Shown: positions 3,537 through 51,730 of the stretch, one piece after another
How the letters are laid out: every line of letters starts with the position of its first letter
Position numbering within the stretch: the first letter of the stretch is position 1
Assembly: GCF_054482525.1 (NCBI RefSeq)
Contig: NZ_CM137006.1
Length of the DNA: 64,000 nucleotides
Strand: one strand, 5' to 3'
The notes under the pieces: generated by a model
Told to the model about the DNA's origin: nothing
What the model saw: the letters and a program-made list of their open reading frames with translations, nothing else
Database searches by the model: none
Position numbers and translations under genes: made by a program

Positions 3537-4370
3537 CTAGTACATTCGACGGCTAAGGCCCATGATATCGAGGATCTTGGTGGCAATCTCTTCTACCGAA
3601 TAATTGGTACTGTTAATCCACGGGATCTGATTTTTACGGTACAAGGCTTCTACTTCCGCGACTTCCATCCTGCACTGACGAAGCGAGGCATAGCGACTGT
3701 TCTCCCGACGTTCTTCGCGAATCGCCGCCAGACGTTCCGGGTCGATAGTCAGGCCGAACAATTTATGCTGAAGCGGTTTGAGCGACGCGGGTAGCACCAG
3801 ATTATCCATATCGTCGGCAATAAAGGGGTAGTTTGCCGCGCGGATACCAAATTGCATTGCCAGATACAGACTGGTGGGGGTTTTACCACAGCGAGAAACG
3901 CCGAGCAGGATCACCTGAGCCTGGTCCAGATTGCGTAACGAAATGCCATCATCGTGGGCGAGGGTGTAATCAATCGCAGCAATGCGCGCATCATATTTAT
4001 TGAGATTATTAGGGTTAAGGCCATGGGTACGATGAGCAATCGGCGTGGGATCCAGTTTCATCTCTTGTTGTAGCGGGGCAACCAGCGCCTGAACGATATC
4101 CTGGCAAAAGCCTTCACTTTGCAAGATGATGGCGCGAATCTCCGGCAACACGATGGAGTAGAAGACCAGCGGGCGCACACCTGTCTGGTGATAAATTGCG
4201 TCAATCTGATCCTTCACTGCCCGTGCACGGCTCTCATTTTCGACAAACGGCAGCGTAATGCTGCTGATAGTGACGGGAAATTGTGACATTACTGCGTGTC
4301 CTAATACCTCCGCAGTTATTGCCGTACCATCAGAAATATAAAAAACGTGGCGATCAACAGCATTATCCAT
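3537..4370 (-). CDS. ppsR: PEP synthase regulatory protein (bifunctional kinase/pyrophosphorylase) PpsR/YdiA, 277 aa
   Basis: 277-aa ORF; divergent from ppsA as in K-12. Confidence 0.92.
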
Positions 4371-4600
4371 TTTGTTCTTCCCGTGATGCAGACATAATTC
4401 TATGAAAGCATAAATTAAAAACGCACAGAAGCGTAGAATGTTATGTCTGGTTTATAAAATGAACCTTCAATTTTATTATTTATGAAAACAGCATTTCATT
4501 TTTATGGTTTCGTTTATACCGATGGTTTATGTGGAAATTGTCGAATAGAGCAGGTTTGCGCAACGCTGGGATCAGTCTTAAAAAGTAAAAAAATATATTT

Positions 4601-4616
4601 GCTTGAACGATTCACC
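4601..4616. promoter_or_regulatory. Candidate Cra (FruR) operator upstream of ppsA
   Basis: gcttgaacgattcacc resembles the Cra half-palindrome TGAA-CG-ATTCA, ~90 bp upstream of the ppsA start; ppsA is a known Cra-activated gene. Confidence 0.35.
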
Positions 4617-4702
4617 GTTTTTTTCATCCGGTTAAATATGCAAAGATAAATGCGCAGAAATGTGTTTCTCAAACCGTTCATTTATCACAAAAGGATTGTT
4701 CG

Positions 4703-7081
4703 ATGTCCAACAATGGCTCGTCACCGCTGGTGCTTTGGTATAACCAACTCGGCATGAATGATGTAGACAGGGTTGGGGGCAAAAATGCCTCCCTGGGTGA
4801 AATGATTACTAACCTTTCCGGAATGGGTGTTTCCGTTCCGAATGGTTTTGCCACAACCGCCGACGCGTTTAACCAGTTTCTGGACCAAAGCGGCGTAAAC
4901 CAGCGCATTTATGAACTGCTGGATAAAACGGATATTGACGATGTTACTCAGCTTGCGAAAGCGGGCGCGCAAATCCGCCAGTGGATTATCGACACTCCCT
5001 TCCAGCCTGAGCTGGAAAACGCCATCCGCGAAGCCTATGCACAGCTTTCCGCCGATGACGAAAACGCCTCGTTTGCGGTGCGTTCCTCCGCTACCGCAGA
5101 AGATATGCCGGACGCTTCTTTTGCCGGTCAGCAGGAAACTTTCCTCAACGTTCAGGGTTTTGACGCCGTTCTCGTGGCAGTGAAACATGTATTTGCTTCT
5201 CTGTTTAACGATCGCGCCATCTCTTATCGTGTGCACCAGGGTTACGATCACCGTGGCGTGGCGCTCTCCGCCGGTGTTCAGCGGATGGTGCGCTCCGACC
5301 TCGCATCTTCTGGCGTGATGTTCTCCATTGATACCGAATCCGGCTTTGACCAGGTGGTGTTTATCACTTCCGCATGGGGCCTTGGTGAAATGGTCGTGCA
5401 GGGTGCGGTTAACCCGGATGAGTTTTACGTGCACAAACCGACACTGGCGGCGAATCGCCCGGCTATCGTGCGCCGCACCATGGGGTCGAAAAAAATCCGC
5501 ATGGTTTACGCGCCGACCCAGGAGCACGGCAAGCAGGTTAAAATCGAAGACGTACCGCAGGAACAGCGTGACATCTTCTCGCTGACCAACGAAGAAGTGC
5601 AGGAACTGGCAAAACAGGCCGTACAAATTGAGAAACACTACGGTCGCCCAATGGATATTGAGTGGGCGAAAGATGGCCACACCGGCAAACTGTTCATTGT
5701 GCAGGCGCGTCCGGAAACCGTGCGCTCACGCGGTCAGGTCATGGAGCGTTATACGCTGCATTCACAGGGTAAGATTATCGCCGAAGGCCGTGCTATCGGT
5801 CATCGCATCGGCGCGGGTCCGGTGAAAGTCATCCATGACATCAGCGAAATGAACCGCATCGAACCTGGCGACGTGCTGGTTACTGACATGACCGACCCGG
5901 ACTGGGAACCGATCATGAAGAAGGCATCTGCCATCGTCACCAATCGTGGCGGTCGTACCTGTCACGCGGCGATCATCGCTCGTGAACTCGGCATTCCGGC
6001 GGTAGTGGGCTGTGGTGATGCAACAGAACGGATGAAAGACGGTGAGAACGTCACTGTTTCTTGTGCCGAAGGTGATACCGGTTATGTCTATGCGGAGTTG
6101 CTGGAATTTAGCGTGAAAAGCTCCAGCGTAGAAACGATGCCTGATCTGCCGTTGAAGGTGATGATGAACGTCGGTAACCCGGACCGTGCTTTCGACTTCG
6201 CCTGCCTGCCGAACGAAGGCGTCGGCCTTGCGCGTCTGGAATTTATCATCAACCGTATGATTGGCGTCCACCCACGCGCACTGCTTGAGTTTGACGATCA
6301 GGAACCGCAGTTGCAAAACGAAATCCGCGAGATGATGAAAGGTTTTGATTCTCCGCGTGAATTTTACGTTGGGCGTCTGACTGAAGGGATCGCGACGCTG
6401 GGTGCCGCGTTTTATCCGAAGCGCGTCATTGTCCGTCTCTCTGATTTTAAATCGAACGAATATGCCAACCTGGTCGGTGGTGAGCGTTACGAGCCAGATG
6501 AAGAGAACCCGATGCTCGGCTTCCGTGGCGCGGGCCGCTATGTTTCCGACAGCTTCCGCGACTGCTTCGCGCTGGAGTGTGAAGCAGTGAAACGTGTGCG
6601 CAACGACATGGGGCTGACCAACGTTGAGATCATGATCCCGTTCGTGCGTACCGTAGATCAGGCGAAAGCGGTGGTTGACGAACTGGCGCGTCAGGGGCTG
6701 AAACGTGGTGAGAACGGGCTGAAAATCATCATGATGTGTGAAATTCCGTCCAACGCCTTGCTGGCAGAGCAGTTCCTCGAATATTTCGACGGCTTCTCAA
6801 TTGGCTCAAACGACATGACACAGCTGGCGCTCGGTCTGGATCGTGACTCCGGCGTGGTGTCTGAACTGTTCGATGAGCGCAACGATGCGGTGAAAGCACT
6901 GCTGTCGATGGCGATTCGTGCCGCGAAGAAACAGGGCAAATATGTCGGGATTTGCGGTCAGGGTCCGTCCGACCACGAAGACTTTGCCGCATGGTTGATG
7001 GAAGAGGGGATCGATAGCCTGTCTCTGAACCCGGATACCGTGGTGCAAACCTGGTTAAGCCTGGCTGAACTGAAGAAATAA
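4703..7081 (+). CDS. ppsA: Phosphoenolpyruvate synthase PpsA, 792 aa
   Basis: 792-aa [37 protein letters not shown]; PEP-utilising enzyme family. Confidence 0.95.
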
Positions 7082-21200: not shown

Positions 21201-21337
21201 CGTGTAATGGCTGCATGAAATAAACAATAAAATATAAATAACATTATCAGCCTGCCGACGGCTTGAAGAGAGTCACAGTATCTTGTGCAACATTATTGGA
21301 AAGCGTGAGGGGCGAGGTAGCGAAGCGGAAAAATGTT

Positions 21338-21407
21338 AAAAAAAAGCCCATCGTGGGAGATGGGCAAAGACTACACACAGCAATTCGTTGTTTCACTCAG
21401 GGGATTT
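21338..21407. repeat. Left attachment-site direct repeat (duplicate of the rprA 3' end and terminator, 70 bp)
   Basis: Identical to 32979-33048: aaaaaaaagcccatcgtgggagatgggcaaagactacacacagcaattcgttgtttcactcaggggattt. Confidence 0.9.
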
Positions 21408-21424
21408 AAGTCATTGATTGATTT

Positions 21425-22054
21425 ATGGGTATGCGGTTTTTCGGCATAAACCAAATTAAGCAAGGCTTGAAAATGGACACACAAATTGCACACATATCGC
21501 ACACAAATAAAAAGGGGTATGTATGGCGCAAGCGTTATGAAAAACGCACGATTGAAATCATCCTACGCACCCGTGATAAATCAATTGCCATAAAAAGAGC
21601 GGCATCAATAACAATTCGCTATATGGAATTAAAATCACTTGACGTTCCATTTAAAGCAATGCTGGAAATGTTAAAAAAGTTTCGTGATGGTCTGATTACG
21701 TCACATGACATTGAGCGCTTAAGGTCGATTGCGATAGCTTCACAGGAAGCTCCACACGCCGCTGTAACCGCTTCGCCTATACAAAGTGTTGGCTATGATG
21801 TCAAAACCGCTCAGAAAGCCGCACAGGGGCATTCCCTTGGCGATGCTCAAAAAGTGTACTTTGGCGCCAACACCGAATGGAAAGAAAAAACCATCAAGGC
21901 TTATTCTGGTTGTATCGACCGCTTTATTTTATGGTGCGCTAATAAAAATATTCATACCGTGGAAGAAATAACGAAAGAGCATGTGATTTCATTTAAATCC
22001 AGCATGGATGAAGAAAAATTAGCCTCCATGACTAAATTTCGCATAATAATATGA
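21425..22054 (+). pseudogene. Tyrosine-integrase-like N-terminal fragment (core-binding/SAM-like region only, catalytic domain missing)
   Basis: 209-aa ORF; the segment KTIKAYSGCIDRFILWCANKNIHTVEEITKEHVISF resembles an integrase core-binding domain; no R..HxxR..Y catalytic region follows; sits next to the att repeat. Confidence 0.4.
21477..21509. repeat. Three tandem ~11-bp repeats (acacacaaatt / gcacacatatc / gcacacaaata), candidate integrase arm-type sites, left end
   Basis: Direct tandem repeats ~70 bp inside the left att repeat; a matching triplet lies ~70 bp inside the right repeat. Confidence 0.5.
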
Positions 22055-22362
22055 TTCGGGTTAGCATAACCAATACTTTTATTAAAGCCTATGTATGCAC
22101 CAATTTCTTTATACTTTAACTTAGTGAAATCTGAAATAATACTCAGTGGCTGCAATACGTTATGTCCATTGTGCGCCCCTTCATTAGCGCAAAATCCTGT
22201 ATTTGCAAACTGACCTTTATCACGCCAGATGAATCTATCAACGCCGCCACATACAGGACATGGTGTATGTTCATTTGGTTTAATATCAATTCCAAAATCA
22301 TTCATATGCACCAATGGATTCTTTTTAATATAATTATTCAAATCAGTAAAGAAATTAGCCAT
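21952..22362 (-). pseudogene. DNA primase zinc-ribbon domain fragment (Toprim and downstream domains absent)
   Basis: Motif HTPCPVCGGVDRFIWRD typical of primase Zn-ribbons; ORF stops soon after; its 3' end overlaps the convergent integrase fragment. Confidence 0.45.
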
Positions 22363-22681
22363 TATATTTGCTCCCGTATCGCCTTGCTGGATGCTTTGCA
22401 AAGAAATCAACGATATCTTGTTTGCGATACCAGATATAACCGTCTAATTCATGATGAATTTCTTGCGGAAATTCTTTAGGGTTAAAGCGTTTGGCGGCAT
22501 AAAACATTGGTTTAGTAACACCAGATAAAGCAATTGCATCATTGCCACACACAAGCCCTGTAAGTTGCACTTTCTGCGATTGTTCTTTTATCTGTGCCGC
22601 GATTAGCCTTTTATTCTCATTAACGTATTTTTCAATCTGTAGCTTACGCATTTTTTCGCGCATGTAATTTATATCGGTCAT
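22355..22681 (-). CDS. AlpA/Xis-like small DNA-binding protein, 108 aa
   Basis: C-terminal region FYAAKRFNPKEFPQE...YIWYRKQDIVDFF resembles the AlpA-family FPK...W..R..DI..W pattern. Confidence 0.45.
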   Translation of the reverse strand: MTDINYMREKMRKLQIEKYVNENKRLIAAQIKEQSQKVQLTGLVCGNDAIALSGVTKPMFYAAKRFNPKEFPQEIHHELDGYIWYRKQDIVDFFAKHPARRYGSKYNG

Positions 22682-22697
22682 TTTAGTATCCTATATA

Positions 22698-24200
22698 TTA
22701 AGTCATTATCTGTGCTGGTGGGGTAATGATATGAATTATCCCTCGATTATTCATAATGAATCTACATCGTTCAAGCCCTGTAATTGCTCGCTTTATATTA
22801 TTTGGCTGCATTTTATACTCAGTTTTTAATGCCTTCGTTAAATCGGATTCATGTACACAGCCATCAGCACTAAATTCCATTAACTGTATTATCATTTCTA
22901 AAACTCGTTCTTGTGCTGGTGCATTTTTCTTTTTTAACTCGCTCATATATGAGTCGTAAGCGAGAGTATTATTACGCGCAGCATTTTGAGTAAAATTAAC
23001 TCCTGCTTCATATGATTCTGCATTTACAGCGTTTTGCATTAATTGCTTATTTTGCTGTTGCGTTGTTAGTGGTTGCCGCTGTTGCGTGTGCATTTGCGCA
23101 TAATCATTTATCGGTGATTGCTGCATGATAAATGGTTCATCATTAGCTTGTTTGCGTTCTATTTTTCCTGCTGCAATTACTGGAGTTGGCCTATCAATAA
23201 ATACCAACGTCTTAGTATTGGCGTTTACCTGATAACCTTTTGCATTTTCTTCGGGATAATCGCATAATTCATTATTAATATCATGTAATTCACAGACGGT
23301 AATTCCGTTATCCGCTGTGCATAAATCAAATTGCATCACTGGTAATTTTGCAGCGCTACGGTTTTTTTCGATAGTGAGTGATACGGATAACCCAAAATCA
23401 TTACCCTGCATTTGCTCTAGTTTAATGACTGTATCAGAGTCATTTTTAAGGGTAATGGCTCCTTTCATACCTTTAGCCGCATCTTTGCCGCCGTGGTGAA
23501 CCATCAAGACAAAAGAATTTGTTTCTACTGCAATTCTTTTCAAAATCGAAATCAGCTTACGCATTGCAATAGCATCATTTTCATCAGGATTTTCCATATC
23601 CAAAATGGTTTTTCCATCAATGCTTTTTTTTGTGTAGTATGCCAAAAATGAAGAAAGCGTATCAAAACAAATGATGCCGCCTTTGTTATTGGTGATTTTA
23701 TTTACATCATTTATTATTCGATTCTGTATTTCTTTATCAAATAAGTTTATTTGTGGTGACAAGATGTGCATTCTGTCATTTTTAACGCCACTATTAAACT
23801 TATTAGACCACGCTGTATTTCGATCTTTGATTTCAACGCCTGTTTCACCATCAAAATAAAAAGCATGGCATTCTTTAGCAACTCGCAAACCAGCCCACGG
23901 TTTACCCTGTGCAACTCTGTTTAAAAGAGATAATGCCGCAAATGATTTGCCTGTGTTGGATTCACCATAAAGGAAGCCGACCTGTTTTCGGTTAAATAGA
24001 TTTTCAATTACAGGGCGTAACCGCTTTTCTGATTGCAATTGAATTTCAGCTAATTCAATTGCACACAATTCATCATTTATACCATCATATTCAGACCACT
24101 CACCGTAGTTGGCGGGTGCGTAATAATCAATCGCGAGAGTGTAATAATAATCAGGAATAGCAGACCAATCAATAAACATTCCTGTGCACATATCATTCAC
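22698..24200 (-). CDS. RecA-like (RepA/AAA_25-type) replication ATPase, 500 aa
   Basis: Walker A GESNTGKS near residue 80; hydrophobic strand plus HHGGKD Walker-B-like region; Q/N-rich linker and C-terminal domain; flanked by AlpA-like genes and iterons. Confidence 0.55.
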   Translation of the reverse strand: MNDMCTGMFIDWSAIPDYYYTLAIDYYAPANYGEWSEYDGINDELCAIELAEIQLQSEKRLRPVIENLFNRKQVGFLYGESNTGKSFAALSLLNRVAQGKPWAGLRVAKECHAFYFDGETGVEIKDRNTAWSNKFNSGVKNDRMHILSPQINLFDKEIQNRIINDVNKITNNKGGIICFDTLSSFLAYYTKKSIDGKTILDMENPDENDAIAMRKLISILKRIAVETNSFVLMVHHGGKDAAKGMKGAITLKNDSDTVIKLEQMQGNDFGLSVSLTIEKNRSAAKLPVMQFDLCTADNGITVCELHDINNELCDYPEENAKGYQVNANTKTLVFIDRPTPVIAAGKIERKQANDEPFIMQQSPINDYAQMHTQQRQPLTTQQQNKQLMQNAVNAESYEAGVNFTQNAARNNTLAYDSYMSELKKKNAPAQERVLEMIIQLMEFSADGCVHESDLTKALKTEYKMQPNNIKRAITGLERCRFIMNNRGIIHIITPPAQIMT

Positions 24201-24247
24201 CGTAATTTGGGTATTTAATTAAGAAAAATTCAATTACTTCTTCTTTT

Positions 24248-24400
24248 TTATATAGATGCTTTGTTTTTTTTGTTTTTATCGCAAGTAACTAAATGCTCTT
24301 TTGGAAATTCTTTAGGGTTAAAACGTTTAGCCATATAAAAAGCGGTTGAGCCAATTTTAGCCAAAAGTTGTGCTTCACGAGGTGTAATTAAGTCGCTCAT
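24248..24400 (-). pseudogene. Second AlpA-like fragment (50 codons), partial duplicate of the 22355-22681 gene
   Basis: Translation MSDLITPREAQLLAKIGSTAFYMAKRFNPKEFPKEH... shares the FY-AKRFNPKEFP motif with the downstream AlpA-like gene; weak RBS; not in the ORF track (<60 aa). Confidence 0.3.
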
Positions 24401-24750
24401 GTAGGGTATCTCTTAGATGTATTCTGAGTGCGGTCATGGTAGGCGAGGGGAGGAATAGCGGCAAGCATTACCGGATATAGTAAGCACTACCAGCTAAAGT
24501 CTAACTAACTGTCAACAGATTGAGGCTAAAACCACTGTATGTAAATTCAATTTTAAAAATTAAAAATCATTCTGGCTTAACTAATTATGCTCAATTTAAA
24601 TTGAATCTGATAATAAAAAGAATCAATAAAATGGATTTAGTGATTTTTAGTTGGACGAAATCGTTCATTTTATGTGCATTGCTCGCTGGTGATAATTCAA
24701 CCAATCCATTCAACCTATTCGAATGGGTGGTGAATTTTTGACCGAATTAA

Positions 24751-24920
24751 ATTCACCTGAATATTCACCGAATGATTCACCTGAATCATTCAGCCCTTCA
24801 TTCACCACGAAACCCAGGCGCGGCGGGGCTTACAGGCCGATTCATTCACCTGAATATTCACCTGAATATTCACCTGAATTATTCAACCAAAAATTCACCT
24901 TCATATTCACTCATTCACCT
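24751..24920. repeat. Iteron array: two clusters of three 12-bp tandem repeats (ATTCACCTGAAT) plus degenerate copies
   Basis: Units at 24751, 24763, 24775 and at 24844, 24856, 24868 with further TTCACC copies; lies upstream of the Rep ATPase operon. Confidence 0.6.
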
Positions 24921-24957
24921 CTCTATAAATAAGCATTGGAATGCTTTTTATAGAGGT
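24921..24957. other. Long near-perfect inverted repeat (ctctataaataagcatt gg aatgctttttatagag), hairpin or operator
   Basis: About 16-bp arms with a 2-nt loop, T-run on one side; lies between the iterons and the ner-like gene. Confidence 0.4.
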
Positions 24958-25236
24958 TGATGAATGAAGGTCGTTCAAGTGAATGAACTGTGAGTTGGGT
25001 AAACCCCTAGGGGTTGGGGGTGTTGTCGATTTGTGGTAAATTCCTTCTGCCAGCGTGAAAAAGGCGCTGGTGGGGATTTGCAGCCCCAAACAAACAAAAC
25101 CATTGGCAAGGAATTGCCGATGCGCGTGCGCACGTCAGTTATGGCGGTCACGGCGAGGGAGTCGAAAGGCTCGCCAGTTTTGTTTGTTTGCTGGTACTGC
25201 AAACCTCGTCGTGATCGTCACCACGGGGATGCATGT

Positions 25237-25488
25237 ATGCAGGAAACAGACTGGCACAAAGCGGATATTCTTGCCTCTTTAAAGAAAAAGAAAATCAGCA
25301 TGGCGGGATTATCCCGTGAACATGGTTTATCAAGTAGCACGTTGCTAAATGCACTTAGTAGAGAATGGCCTAGAGGCGAATTAATTATTGCTAATGCAAT
25401 TGGTGTGTCACCTCAAGAAATATGGCCTTCTAGGTATTTTGAAAAAGATGGCTCTCCAAAAAATCGTGTGATTCGTAAACCTGTTTAA
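25237..25488 (+). CDS. Ner/Nlp (SfsB)-family HTH DNA-binding regulator, ~83 aa
   Basis: MQETDWHKADILASLKKKKISMAGLSREHGLSSSTLLNALSREWPRGELIIANAIGVSPQEIWPSRY closely resembles Ner/Nlp; I prefer the internal ATG at 25237 over the 151-aa ORF start. Confidence 0.6.
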   Translation: MQETDWHKADILASLKKKKISMAGLSREHGLSSSTLLNALSREWPRGELIIANAIGVSPQEIWPSRYFEKDGSPKNRVIRKPV

Positions 25489-25705
25489 ATAAGTCAATGC
25501 GTCTCTGATTAAAAGGGGCGCATTTTTGTTTTTACTGACTTGTTGCAATGTGGGATATGTTGCGCACGTGTGTGCGATAGTTGTTAATTGTTTTTTGTAC
25601 TAGTTAACAAATACGAATTTTCTGAGGGTGCTATTTTGGGTTTTAGCTGCGGCTTCGCCTTGCTGCCCTTCGGGCTGGTGGTGCAAGAAGAATGTTTGAA
25701 AACTT

Positions 25706-25751
25706 CCTTTTCTTTGCTTCACCAGCCCCGTAGGGGCGTGAGCGTAGCGAA
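25706..25751. repeat. 46-bp direct repeat, copy 1 (ccttttctttgcttcaccagccccgtaggggcgtgagcgtagcgaa)
   Basis: Identical to 29912-29957; contains a gcccc-gta-ggggc hairpin; ~100 bp upstream of the 383-aa gene. Confidence 0.85.
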
Positions 25752-25849
25752 CCTAATCACTTTGATTTTGACACATATCGGTTCTATCATTTTCAGGAAA
25801 ATCATCATAGAATTATATAAAACATACGATTTTTAAGGTGAATTTTTAA

Positions 25850-27001
25850 ATGCACGAGAAAGCGCAAACAAAAATAAAAGATACTATTAGAGAAATACTA
25901 ATCACTCCAGCAATCGCTTTTACTGGTCGTGCAGGTCATTTTGATTTTTCATTATATGAAGTTTTAGCAAATGAGCTTAACAAAAGAAAGATAAAGTTTA
26001 AAATTGATAAATTATCATGTTGGATTATTTTTGATGGCGCAAAAAAACATTACTTTCAAGATAAATCAATTACTGACGCACAAGCGATAAATGATTTTGT
26101 GGATACGTTATGTAGTATTTACTGTGAAACACCTATGGATTACTCCATCGATTTTCACTTTAGAAATTTAAAAATCGATATCAACCCGATTGATTATGAG
26201 TTTGTTTCAATTAGAGCGGGTGAGGATATTGGTATTGGTTTGTTCGCTGAAAAAGAAAAGTATGCGATTGCGAGCATTAAAAAGAATGGCTATCTTTCAG
26301 GTGGTTATCCTAGCTCATTTATAAAATCGATTTTGCAAGATTTGAAAATCTTCATTTTTTTGATTAAAAGCATTAATTTGATTAAGACAGGAAAAACCAA
26401 TTTAGCATCCACGTTATTTCAATCGATGTCCGGTCATGCTGACACAATTAAGATTGATTGCGTTAATGTTAAATATCCTTGGATGAATAGCAGTGTCCAT
26501 ATTTCAGAGTCGGTAGGGAAATTTTTACACAACTTTATCTTCAATTATGAATTTGAAGAAGGCTACATTATAGAAAAAATAGATCATTCGCTTCAGCTAA
26601 TGAATGCAATAGTAAAAGATGAGTCAAAAGAAGCCTTGCGTATCAAGGCTGCAATTGATTGGTTGGTGCAATCTGAAATCACTGATGATGAAACCATGTC
26701 TTTTATTCAAATTTGCATGGGGCTTGAATCAATTTTTGGTGATGATGATTATGAGGGTGGCCTAACAAACATACTATCTGATAGATGCGCCTACTTAATA
26801 GGGAATAAAATTAAAGAGAGGAGATTTATAAAGGACACATTTAAAAAAATATATCAAGTTAGGTCAAAGATAGTGCATGGCGTAAGAAATCATTTATCAG
26901 ATGATGAATTATATTTTAGGCATTTAGCATATTCATATTTAGAGCGTTCTATTCTAAAAGAAATTCAAAATTTAGACCTGCAATCCCATCAGGCGACGTG
27001 A
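25850..27001 (+). CDS. Hypothetical protein with C-terminal HEPN-like R-x4-H-G motif, 383 aa
   Basis: AGGTGA RBS 8 nt upstream; C-terminal ...KKIYQVRSKIVHGVRNH matches the R-x4-6-H signature of HEPN RNases; strongly AT-rich. Confidence 0.4.
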   Translation: MHEKAQTKIKDTIREILITPAIAFTGRAGHFDFSLYEVLANELNKRKIKFKIDKLSCWIIFDGAKKHYFQDKSITDAQAINDFVDTLCSIYCETPMDYSIDFHFRNLKIDINPIDYEFVSIRAGEDIGIGLFAEKEKYAIASIKKNGYLSGGYPSSFIKSILQDLKIFIFLIKSINLIKTGKTNLASTLFQSMSGHADTIKIDCVNVKYPWMNSSVHISESVGKFLHNFIFNYEFEEGYIIEKIDHSLQLMNAIVKDESKEALRIKAAIDWLVQSEITDDETMSFIQICMGLESIFGDDDYEGGLTNILSDRCAYLIGNKIKERRFIKDTFKKIYQVRSKIVHGVRNHLSDDELYFRHLAYSYLERSILKEIQNLDLQSHQAT

Positions 27002-27236
27002 AGCTTGTGCGCTTCATTATGGGGCTAGCCGCCATCAGGCAAGGCGATTGCATGTCTTTGCGCTTCGTCGCCTCCTGATGCGTTCTGTGAAGATGTCGAT
27101 CATTTAGTGAGCGCGGCGGATGTTGCTGATGGATAGTGTGGATGCAACTGAACCATACCGCGAAAAGTGGCAGGATTGCGCCGGAATCGTACCGCTAGCA
27201 GGTGTTGAGTGTAAGAAGTAGTGATTGGGTGAAATG

Positions 27237-27275
27237 AAGATAGAAGGCCGCATAGAGGCATACAACTAGCCTTAT
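27237..27275 (-). terminator. Hairpin downstream of the lipoprotein gene (candidate terminator)
   Basis: ccgcata...tatgcgg stem followed, on the minus strand, by a T-rich tract. Confidence 0.35.
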
Positions 27276-27288
27276 GCGGTTGGCTGGT

Positions 27289-27732
27289 TCAGCACTGGTA
27301 AAAGTTGGCGAGGTGTGGAATATGGCTGGTGGTGGTTTCGAAAGCCTTGAGGCGTCCATTTTTATCTTTTTTCAAGTAGAGCATTTTTAGTGCTGGTGGA
27401 AATACTGAATCCATAATTCCATAAACTCCCACATTTTCGTTTTCTTCTTTAAGCATTCCCCAATATTGATAACCATTTAATGCGCTATCATCAATGCCCG
27501 TTCCAACGCGCTTAATGTGGGCAAGATATCGGCCTTTTATCGTAAAGCTAAATGATTCATCACGTTCATTTGTGCAAGTGTAAAATCCATCATCGCTTTC
27601 ATTTATAACTTCAGATGCTTCACGATTTAATGAGTACTTGTCTAAGTTGTTTATGATGTCACTTCGCTGTGCGCATCCAGTCAAATTTAGAATGGTAAAA
27701 ATTAGTACAGAAGATGCAAGATATTTGTTCAT
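27289..27732 (-). CDS. Predicted lipoprotein, ~147 aa
   Basis: N-terminus MNKYLASSVLIFTILNLTGC carries a signal peptide with lipobox LTGC; internal ATG at 27732 preferred. Confidence 0.55.
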   Translation of the reverse strand: MNKYLASSVLIFTILNLTGCAQRSDIINNLDKYSLNREASEVINESDDGFYTCTNERDESFSFTIKGRYLAHIKRVGTGIDDSALNGYQYWGMLKEENENVGVYGIMDSVFPPALKMLYLKKDKNGRLKAFETTTSHIPHLANFYQC

Positions 27733-27818
27733 TTTGATTATCCATATGAAAAGCAAGGTACTTAGATTAAATTACCCTGCTTAAGCAGTAATTAGCGGTT
27801 CCGTTAATAGAGGGTAGA

Positions 27819-28178
27819 TTATTTGTTAATTTGTTTTTTAGTGTGTGAGATAAAATTTCTAAGTAAATCTTTTTCAATTACAATTTCACATTTTAGGTTT
27901 TGGCTATCGACCGCATCAATTCTATCAAACCAAAACATTAATTCCTGGCTTGCATCGCATTTACGTTTGAATTTAATTGCCCTGCCGAATTTTTCACTTA
28001 AAGAATCATCATCACATAAAAAATAAATTTTATTATTAATGGTGATTTGAATTAAATATGTCTTCCTCGTTAGGTAATCTAACCTTTCGTTAGCTTTCAG
28101 TAAGTTAGCTTCAGCTTGTTTGATGCGTATAAGAGCATCCTCTTTGCTTAAAGGGGATGTATTGACAGACTTGATCAT
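27819..28178 (-). CDS. Hypothetical protein, 119 aa, upstream partner of the lipoprotein
   Basis: AAGGA RBS 8 nt upstream of the ATG; co-oriented with the lipoprotein gene, 86-bp gap. Confidence 0.5.
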   Translation of the reverse strand: MIKSVNTSPLSKEDALIRIKQAEANLLKANERLDYLTRKTYLIQITINNKIYFLCDDDSLSEKFGRAIKFKRKCDASQELMFWFDRIDAVDSQNLKCEIVIEKDLLRNFISHTKKQINK

Positions 28179-28287
28179 AATTTAATCCTTTGGTTAAGAT
28201 TCATCAAAAATATGCCATAAATAGCCTTGAAGGTTGTGTGGAATACATATTATGATAGCTTCATCTAATCAGCAAGGGGAATAATAG

Positions 28288-28443
28288 ATGCCTTCTAAAC
28301 GTGTTATATGCTCACTTGATGAGCAAGAGTTAGATATTCTCGAAAAATATAAATTACATTATAAAAATATGCATGGCGTAAAATTAAACAGAACGGCAAT
28401 TATCAAAATGTTGATTAGTCGTCTATCAAAAGAAATTCAATAA
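28288..28443 (+). CDS. Ribbon-helix-helix (Arc/CopG-like) small DNA-binding protein, 51 aa
   Basis: MPSKRVICSLDEQELDILEKYKLHYKNMHGVKLNRTAIIKMLISRLSKEIQ shows a beta-strand/helix/helix pattern; GGGGA RBS; divergent from the 27819-28178 operon; below ORF-track length cutoff. Confidence 0.45.
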   Translation: MPSKRVICSLDEQELDILEKYKLHYKNMHGVKLNRTAIIKMLISRLSKEIQ

Positions 28444-28495
28444 TAATTCTAATTACCAATTAATTTAAACTTCACATAATTAAAGAGGCAACTCT

Positions 28496-28810
28496 ATGCA
28501 CACTCTTTTTTCTAAATTTAAAAACAGGAAAATTAAAATGTATCAACCACGTTATAAAAGCAGAATGATTGACGATAATGAATATAATCAGGTGCTTCAA
28601 TCGAGAATGCAAAATCTTTTAAATCAATATAATAATGAGGTTTCAAACTTAACCCGCATTGGTGTTACAAATTTGGGTTTCGGCCGATGGGATAATGGAG
28701 AGAGCAAAATCAATAACCACGTTAATAAAGTAAGTGAGACTTTGGAAAAGATGCAATCTACGCAAGCCTTGATTGATGCTCTTGCAAATGAAATTACACA
28801 AACTAATTAA
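28496..28810 (+). CDS. Hypothetical protein, 104 aa
   Basis: AAGAGG RBS 8 nt upstream; no recognisable motif. Confidence 0.45.
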   Translation: MHTLFSKFKNRKIKMYQPRYKSRMIDDNEYNQVLQSRMQNLLNQYNNEVSNLTRIGVTNLGFGRWDNGESKINNHVNKVSETLEKMQSTQALIDALANEITQTN

Positions 28811-28894
28811 TCGAATGGGGGATGCTTTAAATGGTAATCGCAATCATGGTTGTAATGTTTTGGGCTTTCCTGATTCTTAAAGAGGAAATGAAAT

Positions 28895-29179
28895 ATGGTT
28901 AAATTTGGAGTGTTTTACCATCATGCATGGGGTGATGGTAAAAAGGAAATCCCGCCACCTGATTTAAATTACATCCGAACCGATCCACATAAAAATAATG
29001 AAATTGCTTTAGATGTTTTTGATTCAAGAATGGACGCACAAAAACGCGCTGATTTACTAAATTCACGCATGGCAAAAAATCAAACTGGTCAGCATTATGT
29101 TGCGCCAACAACGCAAGAAACCAAAACGGCTCAAAAGCGCTTTAAGTTTCCTTGTACTAGCATTTATGGGTGGAAATGA
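28895..29179 (+). CDS. Hypothetical protein, 94 aa (paralog family A)
   Basis: AGAGGA RBS; N-terminus MVKFGVFYHHAWGDG is similar to the next gene's N-terminus. Confidence 0.45.
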   Translation: MVKFGVFYHHAWGDGKKEIPPPDLNYIRTDPHKNNEIALDVFDSRMDAQKRADLLNSRMAKNQTGQHYVAPTTQETKTAQKRFKFPCTSIYGWK

Positions 29180-29181
29180 AA

Positions 29182-29556
29182 ATGAGTAAACAATTCGGTG
29201 TTTTCTTTTGGCGAAAAGGTGACGCTATTACCGATATCCCGTCAGATAAAAATGTTGCAAATCGCGGAGTAAAGCCTAAGCGCATTTTTTCAGATTATAT
29301 TGATGGAATGCGATATAAAGATAAAATGAATGCAACAATTCCAGCGGCGCAAAAAGGTAAATATGAATATGTATTAGCGGAAATTGTTGAACCAGACCCG
29401 AACAATACAAAGGTGTTGTTTAAATCTGGAAATTTAACAGAAGCATTAAGGGCGAAGCGACAAACAACCGAACAAATCAACCGAAATAAAATTGATGCAA
29501 TGATTAAAGAAGCCGCACACGATTACCTTTACACTATTACAGGAATGGAAAAATGA
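29182..29556 (+). CDS. Hypothetical protein, ~124 aa (paralog family A)
   Basis: N-terminus MSKQFGVFFWRKGDA parallels the upstream gene; GGTGGA RBS; start at 29182 preferred over 29170. Confidence 0.45.
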   Translation: MSKQFGVFFWRKGDAITDIPSDKNVANRGVKPKRIFSDYIDGMRYKDKMNATIPAAQKGKYEYVLAEIVEPDPNNTKVLFKSGNLTEALRAKRQTTEQINRNKIDAMIKEAAHDYLYTITGMEK

Positions 29557-29852
29557 TTATTGACGAGCGATTTATTAAATGGTCAATGGTGCTGGTGGAG
29601 GCCGGAAAGCCATCACCCAGCCTCGCGGGGCTTTATAAAGGAAACACTAAAGGATTAATCTTTTATAAAACACGTGAATTGGCATCAAATGCAGCCACTA
29701 AACGGAATGAGCAATTAGCAGGAACTAAATCAACCAGCCGATTTAAAATCATTAAATTGCATGACGCAGAAGCACAACAGAAACATGATTTTCAGTTAAA
29801 ACAGGAACGCCAGCGCCGCGATGCACGCCATATGCGCCGATTTGGTTTCTAA
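29553..29852 (+). CDS. Hypothetical basic protein, 99 aa
   Basis: 4-bp ATGA overlap with the upstream gene suggests translational coupling; Lys/Arg-rich C-terminus. Confidence 0.4.
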   Translation: MIIDERFIKWSMVLVEAGKPSPSLAGLYKGNTKGLIFYKTRELASNAATKRNEQLAGTKSTSRFKIIKLHDAEAQQKHDFQLKQERQRRDARHMRRFGF

Positions 29853-29911
29853 ATATAACTCAATAACTCAACCAATGGTGATGTTAAAGAATAAGGTGGC
29901 CTTAAATTTCA

Positions 29912-29957
29912 CCTTTTCTTTGCTTCACCAGCCCCGTAGGGGCGTGAGCGTAGCGAA
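29912..29957. repeat. 46-bp direct repeat, copy 2
   Basis: Identical to 25706-25751; 37 bp upstream of the tape-measure-like gene. Confidence 0.85.
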
Positions 29958-29993
29958 ATAAGTAACATTAATATCAAATCAGAGGTAAATAAA

Positions 29994-31982
29994 ATGGCAG
30001 GTGAAAATGCTCAATTGGGCTTTTCCGTCGATACATCGGAAGTGGAAACAGCATCAAAAAGGCTTAATGAATTAGCTAAATCAGCGCAAGGGGCGGCTGA
30101 TTCGGCTGGCAAATTATCAGATTCATTTGAGGAAAGTATGAAGGGTGTTAATTCATCAATTACTTCCAATCATCAGGCTATGCGCGAATTAACGGTAATG
30201 ATGCACGAAGCAATGTCTGGTAATTGGTCGCGCTTGCGTGGTTCTGCAATGATTATGGGCGGCGCATTGGGATTTGGTGGATTAACTAGCGGTGCGGTAG
30301 TTGGTGGAATTACGCTTGTTTCGGAAGGCATTGAATCGCTAATTGAAGGAATGCGAGAAGCTCAAAAAGCAGAAACTGAATTAAATAATTCTGCTGTAAT
30401 TACAGCAGATGTAAGCCTTTTAAATAGTGATTATGTTGATTCACTTACTATTGGTTATGAGAAATTAGGCTATTCAGCAACACAAGCAAAAGGCATGATT
30501 GCAGCGTTAAGTAATGCGGGTATGTTTGGTGATGAATTTAGTGTTGCAGGTAAACAAATTGCCGCACTATCTAAAGCGTTAGGCGGTAATTCAGACGAAC
30601 AAAAAAAATTAGCTGGTCAATTTGGTGGCTTGTATTCTGACCCGCTAGGACACGTTAACGAATTTTTCCAAGTAACAAACGGATGGATTACCAAAACCGA
30701 ACAAAACCGAATTAATGCGGCTGAACAATCGCATAATTCAGCACAAGCTGAAATGGCTATGCAAGAAGCGCTATTAGATGTTTATAAGCGTCAAACCGAT
30801 ATGCTACAGCTTAAAGCCTATTTGGAAACTAACGCCGCTACATATTCAGCCTTTCAGACGCGCGAACAATTCGGCAGCGCATGGGGTAAGGGCGAAAAAG
30901 AAAAGGCAGACGCATTTATCAAGCAATATGACGAGCGCCAGCAATCATTTAATCAGGGCGTTGAAAAGCTAAAAGGAAGCATTCACGAAACAGGACGCCA
31001 GATAAGGGAAAATGTAGAAGAATTTAATAAAGGAATGCATCCCCATAAAGTGCATACACACCACGGATTAACAGCAATTGAGAAAGCAGCTAAACAATTG
31101 GTGACCTACCAAACCCAAATTAAACAGGCTGGTTTGCAATTTGACCAGCAAATTAATTCAATTGGTGATTCAGTAAATAATGCGTGGAGTAATAAATTAT
31201 ACTCTTATTCAATGTCTTCTGACCAGAATGATTTTGCAAACCGAATTGAACAAATCAATGAACAATTCGACCGTATGCGCGAAAATGTAGACCGTTTGGC
31301 GCTGCAACATCATAAATCAATTGGTTCAAAAGAATATGTTGAAATGTTCCAAAAAATCGAATTAGGGCGCAAAAACGTATTGGCTGAAAACGTTGCTGGA
31401 TTTAATGAAATGGAGTCATTGCAGCATTCAGCGCTGGCGGGAATGGATGAGGGATGGATTAAATACCAGAAGCAGGTTAATGATGTTGCAAGCCAATCAG
31501 AGAAAGTTTTTGATACGGCTGTTGAGGGAATGACAAATTCATTAACTGATTTCTTTACAACTGGTGAGGCTGGTTGGACTAATTTTGTAAAATCAATCGC
31601 AACAATCACTGAAAAATACATGGTTCAAGATTGGATTGTTGAGCCGCTAGCAGGATTAGTAAAAGGGGGGATTAGCTCGCTATTTTCATCAAATCCATTG
31701 AGTTCAACGGCTAACACTTTTGCCGTTCCCGATATTCCAAAATTGGGCGCAACTCATTTAGGAGGCGGTCTAGGTTCGACCGCACCAGTTATCAATATCA
31801 CCATTAATGACAATGGCAACAAAGGCGGCGTTGATAGCAATGTTAGCGGCACAACAGGGCAAGTACAAAAAATGGGGGCGGCGCTAGATAAATTCCTGCA
31901 AAACTATATCAAAGAGCAAAACGTAAAATCCAACCGTCAGGGCGGGTTAAACAAAACAATGGGGAACTGGTCGACAAGATAA
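29994..31982 (+). CDS. Phage tail tape-measure protein homolog (lambda gpH-like), 662 aa, orphan
   Basis: Glycine-rich hydrophobic segment MIMGGALGFGGLTSGAVVGGITLV near the N-terminus, long helical middle, C-terminal FDTAVEGMTNSLTDFFTTGEAGWTNFVKSI and ...VINITINDNG matching, from memory, the lambda H C-terminal region; AGAGGT RBS. Confidence 0.6.
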   Translation: MAGENAQLGFSVDTSEVETASKRLNELAKSAQGAADSAGKLSDSFEESMKGVNSSITSNHQAMRELTVMMHEAMSGNWSRLRGSAMIMGGALGFGGLTSGAVVGGITLVSEGIESLIEGMREAQKAETELNNSAVITADVSLLNSDYVDSLTIGYEKLGYSATQAKGMIAALSNAGMFGDEFSVAGKQIAALSKALGGNSDEQKKLAGQFGGLYSDPLGHVNEFFQVTNGWITKTEQNRINAAEQSHNSAQAEMAMQEALLDVYKRQTDMLQLKAYLETNAATYSAFQTREQFGSAWGKGEKEKADAFIKQYDERQQSFNQGVEKLKGSIHETGRQIRENVEEFNKGMHPHKVHTHHGLTAIEKAAKQLVTYQTQIKQAGLQFDQQINSIGDSVNNAWSNKLYSYSMSSDQNDFANRIEQINEQFDRMRENVDRLALQHHKSIGSKEYVEMFQKIELGRKNVLAENVAGFNEMESLQHSALAGMDEGWIKYQKQVNDVASQSEKVFDTAVEGMTNSLTDFFTTGEAGWTNFVKSIATITEKYMVQDWIVEPLAGLVKGGISSLFSSNPLSSTANTFAVPDIPKLGATHLGGGLGSTAPVINITINDNGNKGGVDSNVSGTTGQVQKMGAALDKFLQNYIKEQNVKSNRQGGLNKTMGNWSTR

Positions 31983-32043
31983 TATTATGTTGCTTAGTAA
32001 GTCTAAACTTTACGCCCTAATTAGGGCGTTTTATTTAAAAAAG

Positions 32044-32661
32044 TTAATTTGCTGTATTTTCTCTCATCTTTCTAAGTTCTGGCAATACTTTCTTATAGAA
32101 TTTCGTAGTGGAATCAGCGCAGTAGTTTTGCAGATACTTATAGTTTTCTTCAAATTTAGGGAGATCTTTAGCTACCGTCAATTGCTTTGGTAAAGTTCCG
32201 GTAGCATCATCGGTTATATCAAATGTTATTGAATTATGTTTTCGATCTTCATTAACTTTTTTTAAAGTGGCAACAATAGGGCTTTTATCCATAGAACCAT
32301 CTATTAGTTGGCGAACTTGAAACTTCCTTGGGATTATAAAATTAATTACTGACGGAGGTTCACTATTTAATGTTATATTCCAAGTTATTGGCATAGCATC
32401 ACATAAACCTTCAGATATTATTTCACCATCAATTGAACCATCAGAATTGGCGATAAATTGTATTATAACAAGTGGTTGATCTTTATTTAAGCCAAGATCT
32501 CCACTATTTATTATATATTCAGCGTCTGTCGACCATTTGCCTGTTAGAAATTCTTTTTGATAAAGTGCTTCATTTATTTCACCTCTATATGGTAAATATA
32601 GACCTATAGCACCAATTGCAACACCTAATACAGTGCATATTGTTGTTATTCGTCCACTCAT
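32044..32661 (-). CDS. Membrane-anchored hypothetical protein, 205 aa
   Basis: N-terminal hydrophobic helix ITTICTVLGVAIGAIGLYLPY; AT-rich; at the island edge. Confidence 0.45.
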   Translation of the reverse strand: MSGRITTICTVLGVAIGAIGLYLPYRGEINEALYQKEFLTGKWSTDAEYIINSGDLGLNKDQPLVIIQFIANSDGSIDGEIISEGLCDAMPITWNITLNSEPPSVINFIIPRKFQVRQLIDGSMDKSPIVATLKKVNEDRKHNSITFDITDDATGTLPKQLTVAKDLPKFEENYKYLQNYCADSTTKFYKKVLPELRKMRENTAN

Positions 32662-32875
32662 ATCACACTCGTTATCTTATCCTTGTTGTAGTTAAGCATT
32701 TTATTTTATTTTTTTATTGTGAAAATGGCTAGTTTTAGTTGGGTCTTGCGCTGAATCTAACGAGTGCTTACCCCGTGAAGTGATTTATGATTAAAGTTCG
32801 TTTTGTTTTTGGTTAAAAAATGAACATGTGAGTGCTTTGGAAAATTTCTGTAACACTCACCTGATTTACGCTGGT

Positions 32876-32909
32876 AGCACACAAATGGTACACAAACGGC
32901 ACACAGGTA
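32876..32909. repeat. Three tandem ~11-bp repeats (agcacacaaatgg / tacacaaacgg / cacacaggtaa), candidate integrase arm-type sites, right end
   Basis: Mirrors the left-end triplet; same orientation; ~70 bp inside the right att repeat. Confidence 0.5.
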
Positions 32910-32978
32910 ATCGCATACCTTTAATGACCTAATTTCTTCAAGCCCCTGCATTGCTGCGTTTGTCGTGATTTTCGGCAT

Positions 32979-33048
32979 AAAAAAAAGCCCATCGTGGGAG
33001 ATGGGCAAAGACTACACACAGCAATTCGTTGTTTCACTCAGGGGATTT
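32979..33048. repeat. Right attachment-site direct repeat (3' 70 nt of intact rprA)
   Basis: Identical to 21338-21407. Confidence 0.9.
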
Positions 33049-33084
33049 CCATGCTTATAAATCAATATGTTGATTTATAACCGT
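32979..33084 (-). ncRNA. rprA: Small regulatory RNA RprA (activator of rpoS translation)
   Basis: Minus-strand sequence ACGGTTATAAATCAACATATTGATTTATAAGCATGGAAATCCCCTGAGTGAAACAACGAATTGCTGTGTGTAGTCTTTGCCCATCTCCCACGATGGGCTTTTTTTT matches RprA from memory, including the intrinsic terminator; lies between ydiK and ydiL. Confidence 0.85.
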
Positions 33085-47759: not shown

Positions 47760-48315
47760 GACAGTCTTAGTCTTTAAGTTGAGAAGGATGGGAGAAACTT
47801 GCTTTCTGGGCGCACTGCCGGAAAGCGAATCCGGTATTACGAAAGTGGTGGTGCCTCGCTCTAAGGATAGGTGACATCGAAAAAGCGTGCAGAGGAATGT
47901 GTGCTTGTGTCTCAGCCCAACGTGAGTGCCTGTTTTTGAGTCGTTGAGTTCTACAGTCCAAAGTGCTGAAACCATTCAAGAGTCAATTGGCGCGCATTAT
48001 ACGCTGAAATTAATCCAAAAGGAAAACAAAAACAGCGTTTCAAAAAATATACAACTTGTTAGACAATAAATTGTTATCAAAGATTTAACGTTCCAGGGAA
48101 AAGGTTACGCAAAAACTTCGCTGTTTGCGCAACGTCTGGTGCCGGGGTTGTCAGTGTGAGGATAAGTGAGAGTTCATCCGGTGTATAAATACATCATCGC
48201 TCAATTGCTACAGTGAAAATAATTTATCGCGTTATTTGTCTGATTTTGTTTGGTTTTTGTTTAATTGGTTAGATTGATATATGCTGATAGTTGGCATGAT
48301 AAATAGGTATAAAGA

Positions 48316-48525
48316 ATGGGAAACCGGACAAAAGAGGATGAACTGTACCGAGAAATGTGCAGAGTTGTCGGTAAAGTTGTGCTGGAAATGCGCGATCTGG
48401 GGCAGGAACCAAAGCATATTGTTATCGCAGGCGTATTACGTACAGCATTAGCCAATAAACGCATTCAGCGCAGTGAGCTGGAAAAGCAGGCGATGGAAAC
48501 CGTCATTAACGCACTGGTAAAATGA
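48316..48525 (+). CDS. ydhZ: Small protein YdhZ (FumD), 69 aa
   Basis: 69-aa ORF MGNRTKEDELYREMCRVVGKVV...; synteny next to pykF. Confidence 0.8.
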   Translation: MGNRTKEDELYREMCRVVGKVVLEMRDLGQEPKHIVIAGVLRTALANKRIQRSELEKQAMETVINALVK

Positions 48526-48765
48526 CCATTCAGGATGAGGCGGTAAGCTTCATCCTGATATTCTTGCTTCAGTTGCGCTCCAGTTAATCACTCTAAATAA
48601 CAACTGCTGAAATTATACGAATTTCGGTATGTATTTTAATTTATAGCGATAATGTTATTTTTATTTTCTGCAATGAACGTCACAAATAATTGTCGCTTAA
48701 GTTAAATTTATTTCAAATGATAATAAATATCAGTTCACTTATAATTTCTTGCTTTGTGATTTTAA

Positions 48766-48779
48766 TTGATAACGATCAA
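48766..48779. promoter_or_regulatory. FNR-box-like site (TTGAT-aacg-ATCAA) upstream of ydhY
   Basis: Perfect TTGAT-N4-ATCAA in the AT-rich region upstream of the ydhYVWXUT operon, which is known to be FNR-dependent. Confidence 0.55.

Positions 48780-48980: not shown

Positions 48981-51730
<2,750 letters not shown>

Follow-up and report, generated by a model that had tools for sequence, protein, structure and literature searches.

A gene at positions 25850–27001 of the 64,000-nucleotide stretch of Escherichia coli DNA analysed here (hereafter called “the window”) encodes a 383-residue protein with a predicted HEPN domain at its C-terminus. We found that this protein belongs to a large, uncharacterised family that is carried on mobile elements, exchanges its alleles, and has a novel N-terminal domain. 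By analogy with known systems, it is probably a stand-alone HEPN ribonuclease activated by infection, which would serve as a single-gene abortive-infection or defence effector on mobile elements; the defence function is plausible from the genomic context and the same analogy. The protein is identical to WP_000544521.1, which PGAP names “HEPN domain-containing protein”. The HEPN label is already present in NCBI and UniProt, and the domain call itself is not new. The ~3 kb around the gene is 100% identical in the complete genomes PCN033, SCU-102, and 19KM1776, and relatives are detectable at the DNA level in 5 of 5,426 complete E. coli genomes.

A first-pass annotation of the window had pointed to a 383-residue open reading frame with a particular C-terminal peptide, and both are present as it described them. 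The gene and the parts of its product are as follows.
25850–27001, plus strand: HEPN gene, ATG start, 383 residues (from the list of open reading frames).
25850–26554, plus strand: N-terminal domain, residues 1–235, mixed alpha/beta fold (from the secondary structure and the predicted local distance difference test score, pLDDT, of the AlphaFold2 model).
26555–26998, plus strand: C-terminal HEPN domain, residues 236–383, predicted helices 237–256, 260–277, 281–296, 305–317, 321–342, and 351–374.
26861–26881, plus strand: catalytic-type motif R338-S-K-I-V-H343-G344 (R-x4-H), from conservation and from its alignment by hhalign to R502 and H507 of ApeA.

In the AlphaFold2 model, the C-terminal ~145 residues form a HEPN domain with high confidence. 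The predicted structure has the all-helical four-helix core of the superfamily and carries the conserved R-x4-6-H on the third core helix, with R338 and H343 located at the end of the helix 321–342. The structural matches of the domain (values in brackets) are AF0298 (9.6), HepT toxins (9.2, 8.8, and 8.1), AbiA (8.1), the HEPN domain of sacsin (7.8), AbiV (7.4), and Las1. In a protein of this length, about one bare R-x4-6-H would arise by chance, and the motif on its own is therefore little proof. It becomes meaningful because it occurs only once in the 383 residues and because R338, H343, and G344 are unchanged in two sets of diverged homologs, of 26 and 124 sequences. Also invariant are G147, W271, R324, Y335, and, on core helix 1, E293, and D311-R312-C313 is nearly so. 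The first-pass annotation had proposed a C-terminal HEPN-like domain and had named structure prediction as a way to check it; the predicted fold and the R/H pair, invariant in 124 homologs, bear out the proposal. The HEPN fold is thus established as far as prediction allows, and we infer ribonuclease activity from the invariant catalytic-type residues.

Searches against named families and solved structures gave little. The whole model found no significant match in the PDB with Foldseek, which means that no solved structure has the full architecture, and the sequence and profile searches of the PDB were empty. The query had zero matches in PADLOC (E ≤ 1) and NCBIfam, and none in Pfam even at E ≤ 10. 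When the 26 and the 124 members were scanned singly, none matched a Pfam HEPN family (HEPN_Apea, RiboL-PSP, AbiU2, AbiV, Swt1, MAE_28990, and others) at E ≤ 0.1, in a test of low power, as genuine ApeA homologs also lack a precomputed Pfam match in the same resource. In PHROGs, the query matched only phrog_28161, a family of no known function, and weakly (E 1e-3). A search of 5.8 billion proteins with a profile built from just the C-terminal domain retrieved only short fragments of the same family and no bridge to a named HEPN family.

The N-terminal domain is confidently folded, according to the pLDDT of the model. It has no Pfam or PDB match, and hence represents a fold without a known relative. 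Within the family, the mean pairwise identity is 20% in the N-terminal domain versus 52% in the HEPN core. This combination of a variable N-terminal domain and a conserved HEPN core fits a sensor–effector layout, with the N-terminal domain as the candidate sensor or regulatory domain, in agreement with the earlier suggestion that this region, which contains no recognisable motif, could be a sensor.

How large is the family? A phmmer search of 1.84 billion cluster representatives yielded 1,419 relatives at E ≤ 1e-3, a number that counts clusters at 50% identity, and 499 at E ≤ 1e-10; most are 380–450 residues long. Foldseek against AFDB50 yielded 812 matches at E ≤ 0.001, the best 50 of which align across most of their length with template-modelling (TM) scores of 0.5–0.87. 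The matches listed come mostly from Proteobacteria (Gamma-, Beta-, and Alphaproteobacteria); Bacillota and Acidobacteriota each contribute at least one. Full-length matches over so many taxa indicate that the two-domain architecture is old and widespread. We found no published description of the family in the literature, and it is absent from Pfam, NCBIfam, and PADLOC v2. A few structural neighbours bear the UniProt label “Apea-like HEPN domain-containing protein”, which was not reproduced with Pfam.

Four single-protein HEPN abortive-infection effectors provide the framework for comparison: Tha-1, HepS, ApeA, and DARNA (PMC11087260; PMC13043305; bioRxiv 10.64898/2026.01.26.701840; bioRxiv 10.64898/2026.02.22.705581). 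Judging by published descriptions, the nearest functional analogue would be Tha-1. Tha-1 and Tha-2 constitute a tail-activated HEPN anti-phage system of Staphylococcus aureus prophages, encoded beside int/xis and triggered by a tail protein (PMC11087260). Like the window protein, Tha consists of one polypeptide, in which an N-terminal region without annotation precedes a HEPN domain bearing R-x4-H; the Tha-1 motif is R265NSIMH270, and that of the window protein is R338SKIVH343. Tha lies at the integrase end of a temperate element, as do the homologs of Pseudomonas aeruginosa and Klebsiella aerogenes, and both Tha and the window protein have HepT-like structural neighbours. In contrast, Tha has 301 residues and an N-terminal region predicted to be disordered (pLDDT <50), whereas that of the window protein is confidently folded. 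Tha also has a neighbouring Xis-like inhibitor, Ith, while no equivalent conserved neighbour was found for the window family, and the hosts of Tha are Gram-positive.

HepS is a HEPN Solo defence element of the Gifsy-1 prophage, which is inactive by default and causes abortive infection through tRNA cleavage; its trigger is the tail-tip protein J, which binds the HEPN tetramer itself (PMC13043305). Compared by description, it resembles the window protein in being a single HEPN protein on a mobile element without a partner, and differs in consisting of a solo HEPN domain. HepS provides the precedent of sensing and killing by one and the same HEPN protein. DARNA, or PD-T7-3, is a HEPN tRNase activated by single-stranded DNA, in which the HEPN domain (residues 1–159) is followed by an all-helical Pds5-like C-terminal domain (bioRxiv 10.64898/2026.02.22.705581). 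The domain order is therefore reversed relative to that of the window protein, which has no match to the PADLOC PD-T7-3 model.

ApeA (Gao_Ape) required closer comparison. It is a single-gene HEPN anticodon nuclease activated by deoxydinucleotides, with ~585 residues in three largely helical domains and a split HEPN domain with large insertions at residues 335–583 (bioRxiv 10.64898/2026.01.26.701840). Both ApeA and the window protein are encoded by a single gene and place a region of unknown function before a C-terminal HEPN domain. The catalytic helix of ApeA, IYRTRNLIVHTG, reads like the IYxxRSKIVHG of the window family, and its helix 1 contains AIESL, where the window protein has GLESI. The window protein differs in its length of 383 residues, its alpha/beta N-terminal domain with several strands, and its compact ~145-residue HEPN domain without large insertions. 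We aligned the family (124 sequences) by hhalign with 27 homologs of Ec2ApeA, whose sequence was taken from the supplement of bioRxiv 10.64898/2026.01.26.701840. Only 45 columns at the catalytic helix were aligned, with a probability of 4.4%, and R338/H343 was paired with R502/H507 of ApeA. The PADLOC model of ApeA matched neither the query (E ≤ 1) nor any of 10 diverse members (E ≤ 10). The likeness to ApeA, one of the groups for which the first-pass annotation cited the motif, is confined to the catalytic-helix motif, and we rejected membership in the ApeA family on the basis of this alignment, the PADLOC result, and the different architecture.

The HepT toxins of the type VII HepT/MNT systems (PDB 7ae2, 5yep, and 8xdj) are minimal HEPN proteins of ~130 residues whose genes always have an MNT antitoxin gene next to them. 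The fold of the window protein matches them, whereas the protein has an extra domain of 235 residues and no MNT neighbour in the contexts examined. None of the other HEPN systems of PADLOC v2 (PD-T4-2, PD-T4-5, PD-T7-3, PD-T7-4, Gao_Hhe, PrrC, RloC, AbiD/F/J/U2/V, and RnlAB) matched the query or the 10 diverse members, and a match to AbiEi (E 0.016) in the scan of these members was spurious. On this basis, the protein would represent a new family of stand-alone sensor–HEPN abortive-infection effectors, which are of a known kind.

In which genomic settings does the family occur? In a small sample, we distinguished seven independent kinds of context, comprising three mobile elements, two defence or conflict neighbourhoods, and two without such neighbours. 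In P. aeruginosa integrative elements, the homolog lies directly downstream of the integrase, and two diverged alleles occupy the same slot of different elements. On SSU5-like phage-plasmids (~110 kb) of Enterobacter and Klebsiella, it is the lone opposite-strand gene between the tail-fibre and the partition/replication modules, which is a moron slot. Homologs on similar-sized Cronobacter plasmids are known from the homolog matches alone. In Serratia, the homolog adjoins a CD-NTase/patatin CBASS operon and a CbtA/CbeA pair, and in another Pseudomonas it lies near the conflict genes PAAR, CTD9, MC5, and AAA_23. The family also occurs in Geobacteraceae.

No partner gene is conserved across the seven kinds of context, in line with the single-gene system proposed at the outset, and an MNT or other nucleotidyltransferase gene was adjacent in none of the contexts examined. 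The small open reading frames downstream of the homologs in Pseudomonas (72 residues, hydrophobic) and Geobacter (61 residues) are mutually unrelated and have no family match. The 72-residue frame is very hydrophobic, with apparently two transmembrane helices, and lies directly 3′ of both diverged P. aeruginosa alleles (L004, 9274–9492; L023, 8305–8523); it was not seen in the other contexts. As a hydrophobic peptide without a family match, it was rejected as a Xis-like inhibitor of the kind that Ith is for Tha.

In the window, the gene resides on an island inserted at rprA. The features of this island to which we refer below are as follows.
21336–33084, no strand assigned: host island of ~11.6 kb and low GC content, in the rprA small RNA gene between ydiL and ydiK (from the RprA copies and the GC profile).
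24751–24910, no strand assigned: arrays of a 12-nucleotide repeat with the unit ATTCACCTGAAT, ~9 partly palindromic copies in two clusters, between the replication genes and C4/ner.
25137–25225, plus strand: C4 antisense RNA (Rfam RF01695, P1/P7 immunity type; score 65.8 bits, gathering threshold 45), directly upstream of the Ner-like repressor gene at 25237–25488.
25496–25534, plus strand: terminator-like hairpin with a T-run, 3′ of the ner-like gene.
25643–25760, plus strand: conserved non-coding block directly upstream of the HEPN gene, near-invariant in five islands.
25706–25751, plus strand: 46-nucleotide core CCTTTTCTTTGCTTCACCAGCCCCGTAGGGGCGTGAGCGTAGCGAA within this block.
25762–25790, plus strand: sigma-70 promoter-like site TTGATT-17-TATCAT, 60 nucleotides before the ATG of the HEPN gene (consensus match only).
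25835–25840, plus strand: Shine–Dalgarno-like AAGGTG, 9 nucleotides before the same ATG (read from the sequence).
29912–29957, plus strand: second copy of the 46-nucleotide core, 100% identical, 37 nucleotides upstream of the tape-measure-like gene.
29994–31982, plus strand: tape-measure-like gene, 662 residues; the C-terminal domain is of the lambda tape-measure type (matches to PHROG tape-measure families at E 1e-21 to 1e-12).

The two RprA copies, a hybrid one at 21336–21456 and an intact one at 32977–33084, mark the island ends, and integration duplicates rprA. The integrase is followed by the primase, a 500-residue AAA/RepA-like helicase, the iteron-like 12-mers, the C4-type antisense RNA, the Ner-like repressor, and the HEPN gene; beyond the HEPN gene lie two convergent small genes, five small genes, the 662-residue protein with the tape-measure C-terminal domain, and a 205-residue gene. 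Compared with the intact island of E. coli FREC5, a ~1.8-kb deletion has cut the integrase (21425–22054) to 209 residues and the primase (21952–22410) to 152 residues. Since both are truncated, the island copy in the window is defective and probably immobile. The island has no capsid or packaging genes, and the tape-measure C-terminal-domain protein is its only phage-structural feature. To our knowledge, the rprA island fits none of the descriptions of P4, PICI, cfPICI, and PICMI, and we found no published account of it in the literature.

Same-site islands of E. coli FREC5 and S10 and of K. aerogenes all carry a HEPN-family allele at the same position. The allele is retained where the replication module differs (S10, with DUF3987) or is missing (K. 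aerogenes), and a heavily decayed E. coli remnant retains only integrase fragments, the HEPN gene, an insertion sequence (IS) element, and a PIN_12 gene. The HEPN gene is a fixed component of the rprA island family and not one of many alternative cargoes. The first-pass annotation had placed the gene in the cargo block of a satellite-like island. Its location on a low-GC mobile island stands, whereas the notion of free cargo in a hotspot gives way to a same-family allele at the same position in every related rprA island, though the alleles are exchanged. The end of the island at attR behaves like a variable cargo slot: related islands have a PIN_12-domain gene of ~381 residues there (L003, 15967–17112; L015, 15138–16292; L007, 10661–11806), while the window island instead has an unrelated 205-residue gene at 32044–32661 on the minus strand.

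The alleles themselves differ far more than their surroundings. Against FREC5, the HEPN protein is 72% identical and the proteins of the flanking genes 94–99%; against S10 and K. aerogenes, the values are 36–41% for the HEPN protein and ~85–92% for its neighbours. In a Nei–Gojobori comparison with the FREC5 allele, the synonymous divergence (dS) of the HEPN gene is 1.37, versus 0.01–0.29 for the adjacent genes, and the ratio of non-synonymous to synonymous divergence (dN/dS) is 0.13 (0.12–0.14 in both domains). This ratio indicates a functional coding gene under purifying selection, and the high dS relative to the neighbours together with the low dN/dS points to allele replacement. In-place positive or relaxed selection was rejected because dN/dS is 0.12–0.14 in both domains and dS is 5–100 times that of the neighbours. 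We therefore read these sequences as old functional alleles that have recombined into a conserved backbone. Such allele exchange within the rprA islands fits selection for changing trigger specificity.

The block upstream of the HEPN gene contrasts with the gene that it precedes. These ~110 nucleotides (25643–25760) are near-invariant in five islands although the HEPN proteins are only 36–72% identical. The block contains a hairpin with arms at 25672–25686 and 25714–25728, the 5′ arm of which holds the Chi octamer GCTGGTGG (25674–25681), and its RNA fold z-score is −3.9. The arrangement with two copies of the 46-nucleotide element, one before the HEPN gene and one before the tape-measure-like gene, is present in four islands, and these two are the hypervariable genes of the island backbone. 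The tape-measure-like protein is 88%, 36%, and 36% identical between islands, versus 85–99% for the neighbouring small genes. In FREC5, the integrase is directly followed by a third, partial copy. In the islands without a replication module, the order is integrase, element, and HEPN gene; these islands look like deletions, and recombination between the direct-repeat copies would explain them. The element was not found near homologs outside the islands, had no exact match in 2.9 million viral contigs, and gave no Rfam match above noise, leaving its identity as a known RNA family or helper-phage signal unsupported. The element might serve as an anchor for recombination during the exchange of cassettes, act as an RNA, or be a promoter or operator shared by both genes.

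The GC content of the HEPN gene is 0.32 across 26001–27000, compared with ~0.5 in the surrounding chromosome, and the Shine–Dalgarno-like AAGGTG lies 9 nucleotides from the ATG, so that the AT-richness and the ribosome-binding site noted earlier were both recovered. The terminator-like hairpin after the ner-like gene suggests that the HEPN gene is transcribed separately. The promoter-like site is weak evidence, as sigma-70-like sites in the region are no more numerous than in shuffled sequences.

How would such a protein act? By analogy with ApeA, HepS, DARNA, Tha, Csm6, and HepT, two HEPN domains would dimerise and form a composite active site. In uninfected cells, the enzyme would be held inactive by its own N-terminal domain or by its oligomeric state. 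It would then be activated when the N-terminal domain recognises a cue from the phage. The activated enzyme may cut host RNA, phage RNA, or both, most likely the anticodon loops of tRNAs, as with ApeA, HepS, DARNA, and PrrC, or alternatively bulk RNA, as with Tha. Translation would consequently stop, and the phage burst would be aborted. The case for such a defence role is contextual: the gene is carried on mobile elements, one homolog adjoins a CBASS system, and alleles have been swapped.

Several points weigh against a defence effector of this kind. The dimerisation, autoinhibition, trigger, and RNA target are all drawn by analogy. The query has no PADLOC match, and among its diverse relatives two distant ones gave marginal matches only, to the DzbB C-terminus (E 2.5e-3 and 7.5e-3); with these two matches as its only basis, and no HEPN annotation of DzbB in the literature, a relationship to DzbB (Dazbog) was set aside. 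Some homologs lie among ordinary chromosomal genes with no mobile or defence genes nearby, and none of 50,697 deposited phage genomes contains a member of the family. Finally, as a fixed component of the rprA islands that shares its preceding cis element with the tape-measure-like gene, the HEPN gene could serve the life cycle of the island rather than host defence.

Could the protein, then, be a life-cycle or helper-interference factor of a satellite-type island, co-regulated with the tape-measure-like protein and sabotaging a helper or competing phage, for example by cutting late transcripts? The constant position of the gene in every rprA island examined, even where the replication module is different or missing, the identical 46-nucleotide elements before both genes in four islands, and the shared hypervariability of these genes speak for this idea. 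Outside the islands, however, the family occurs without the element, the tape-measure-like gene, or a satellite backbone, as in P. aeruginosa, the phage-plasmids, Serratia, and Geobacteraceae. Moreover, decayed immobile islands, including that of the window, keep the gene intact under purifying selection, which argues for a host benefit independent of island transfer. We consider a pure life-cycle role unlikely; it also overlaps with the defence effector, since interference with a phage would still be anti-phage activity.

A toxin of an addiction (toxin–antitoxin) module that stabilises the mobile element appears quite improbable. Many HEPN proteins are toxins (HepT/MNT, RnlA, and AbiF), HepT is among the best structural matches, and, like addiction modules, the gene survives in decayed islands. 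The antitoxin, which would have gone unrecognised, might be a protein of small size or an RNA, either of the antisense or repeat kind known from AbiF and type III systems or of the C4 type; a C4 antisense RNA (65.8 bits) indeed lies 625 nucleotides upstream of the HEPN gene. Several observations speak against such a module. No neighbouring open reading frame is conserved, the downstream frames of Pseudomonas and Geobacter being unrelated, and no context has an adjacent MNT or nucleotidyltransferase gene. No tandem repeats flank the gene: Tandem Repeats Finder (TRF) and a repeat search found no array within ~900 nucleotides, and the 12-mers lie ~1 kb upstream, beyond C4/ner. The C4 RNA was rejected as a regulator or antitoxin of the HEPN mRNA because its pairing with the HEPN translation start is no better than in shuffles, 13% of which match its duplex energy; furthermore, the gene is carried by the K. 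aerogenes island, the phage-plasmids, and the Pseudomonas elements, all of which lack C4 and ner.

The 46-nucleotide element shared by the two hypervariable genes also motivates a more specific and rather doubtful proposal, in which the HEPN protein and the tape-measure-like protein, both exchanged as diverged alleles, would form one co-regulated module and the island would be a new type of minimal phage satellite. The HEPN protein would respond to tail assembly: a tail component of a rival phage would trigger it, or the tape-measure mimic of the island itself would restrain it, and when the wrong phage assembles tails, it would kill the cell or the competitors of the helper. If this were true, a satellite would encode a protein that senses tails as Tha and HepS do, but by means of an unrelated sensor domain. 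No other tail genes lie near the tape-measure-like gene, and its matches in phages are confined to short stretches (~90 residues, 31–34% identity) in the tape-measure genes of Klebsiella phages.

A non-defensive housekeeping or regulatory HEPN protein, acting in RNA processing or nucleotide binding, or a catalytically inert scaffold is very unlikely, because all 124 sequences have the R, the H, and the E of helix 1, as is typical of active HEPN ribonucleases, and because the gene is patchy, strain-specific (5 of 5,426 complete E. coli genomes), AT-rich, and located on mobile elements.

Other parts of the island and the window deserve mention. The 12-nucleotide arrays look like iterons of the replication origin of the island. 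Positions 25087–25100 are perfectly complementary over 14 nucleotides to 25177–25190 within C4, as in the immI layout of P1, and the arrangement of C4 and ner suggests that this small island has an antisense immunity switch like that of P1. A 147-residue gene (27289–27732, minus strand) is convergent with the HEPN gene; its product starts with MNKYLASSVLIFTILNLTGC, a signal peptide of the lipoprotein type that includes a lipobox, and the gene is kept at 84–95% identity in most islands and at only 36% in S10. Three consecutive small genes at 28895–29852 on the plus strand (94, 124, and 99 residues) are 98–99% identical between the window and FREC5 and have no PHROGs or PADLOC match. Two of them start with a similar FGVF(Y/F) motif and may be paralogues. 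Outside the island, the GC content dips at 48001–49000 (0.37) and 4001–5000 (0.44).

Single-protein HEPN effectors such as ApeA, HepS, Tha, and DARNA have recently become models for how one polypeptide senses infection and then halts translation. The family described here is found on clinically relevant elements, namely the SSU5-like phage-plasmids of Klebsiella, Enterobacter, and Cronobacter and the islands of P. aeruginosa. If its members protect against phages, they would add a new sensor domain to the HEPN repertoire and would constitute a defence gene overlooked by current annotation pipelines. In that case, the natural series of alleles on the constant backbone of the rprA islands would also provide a resource for mapping trigger specificity.

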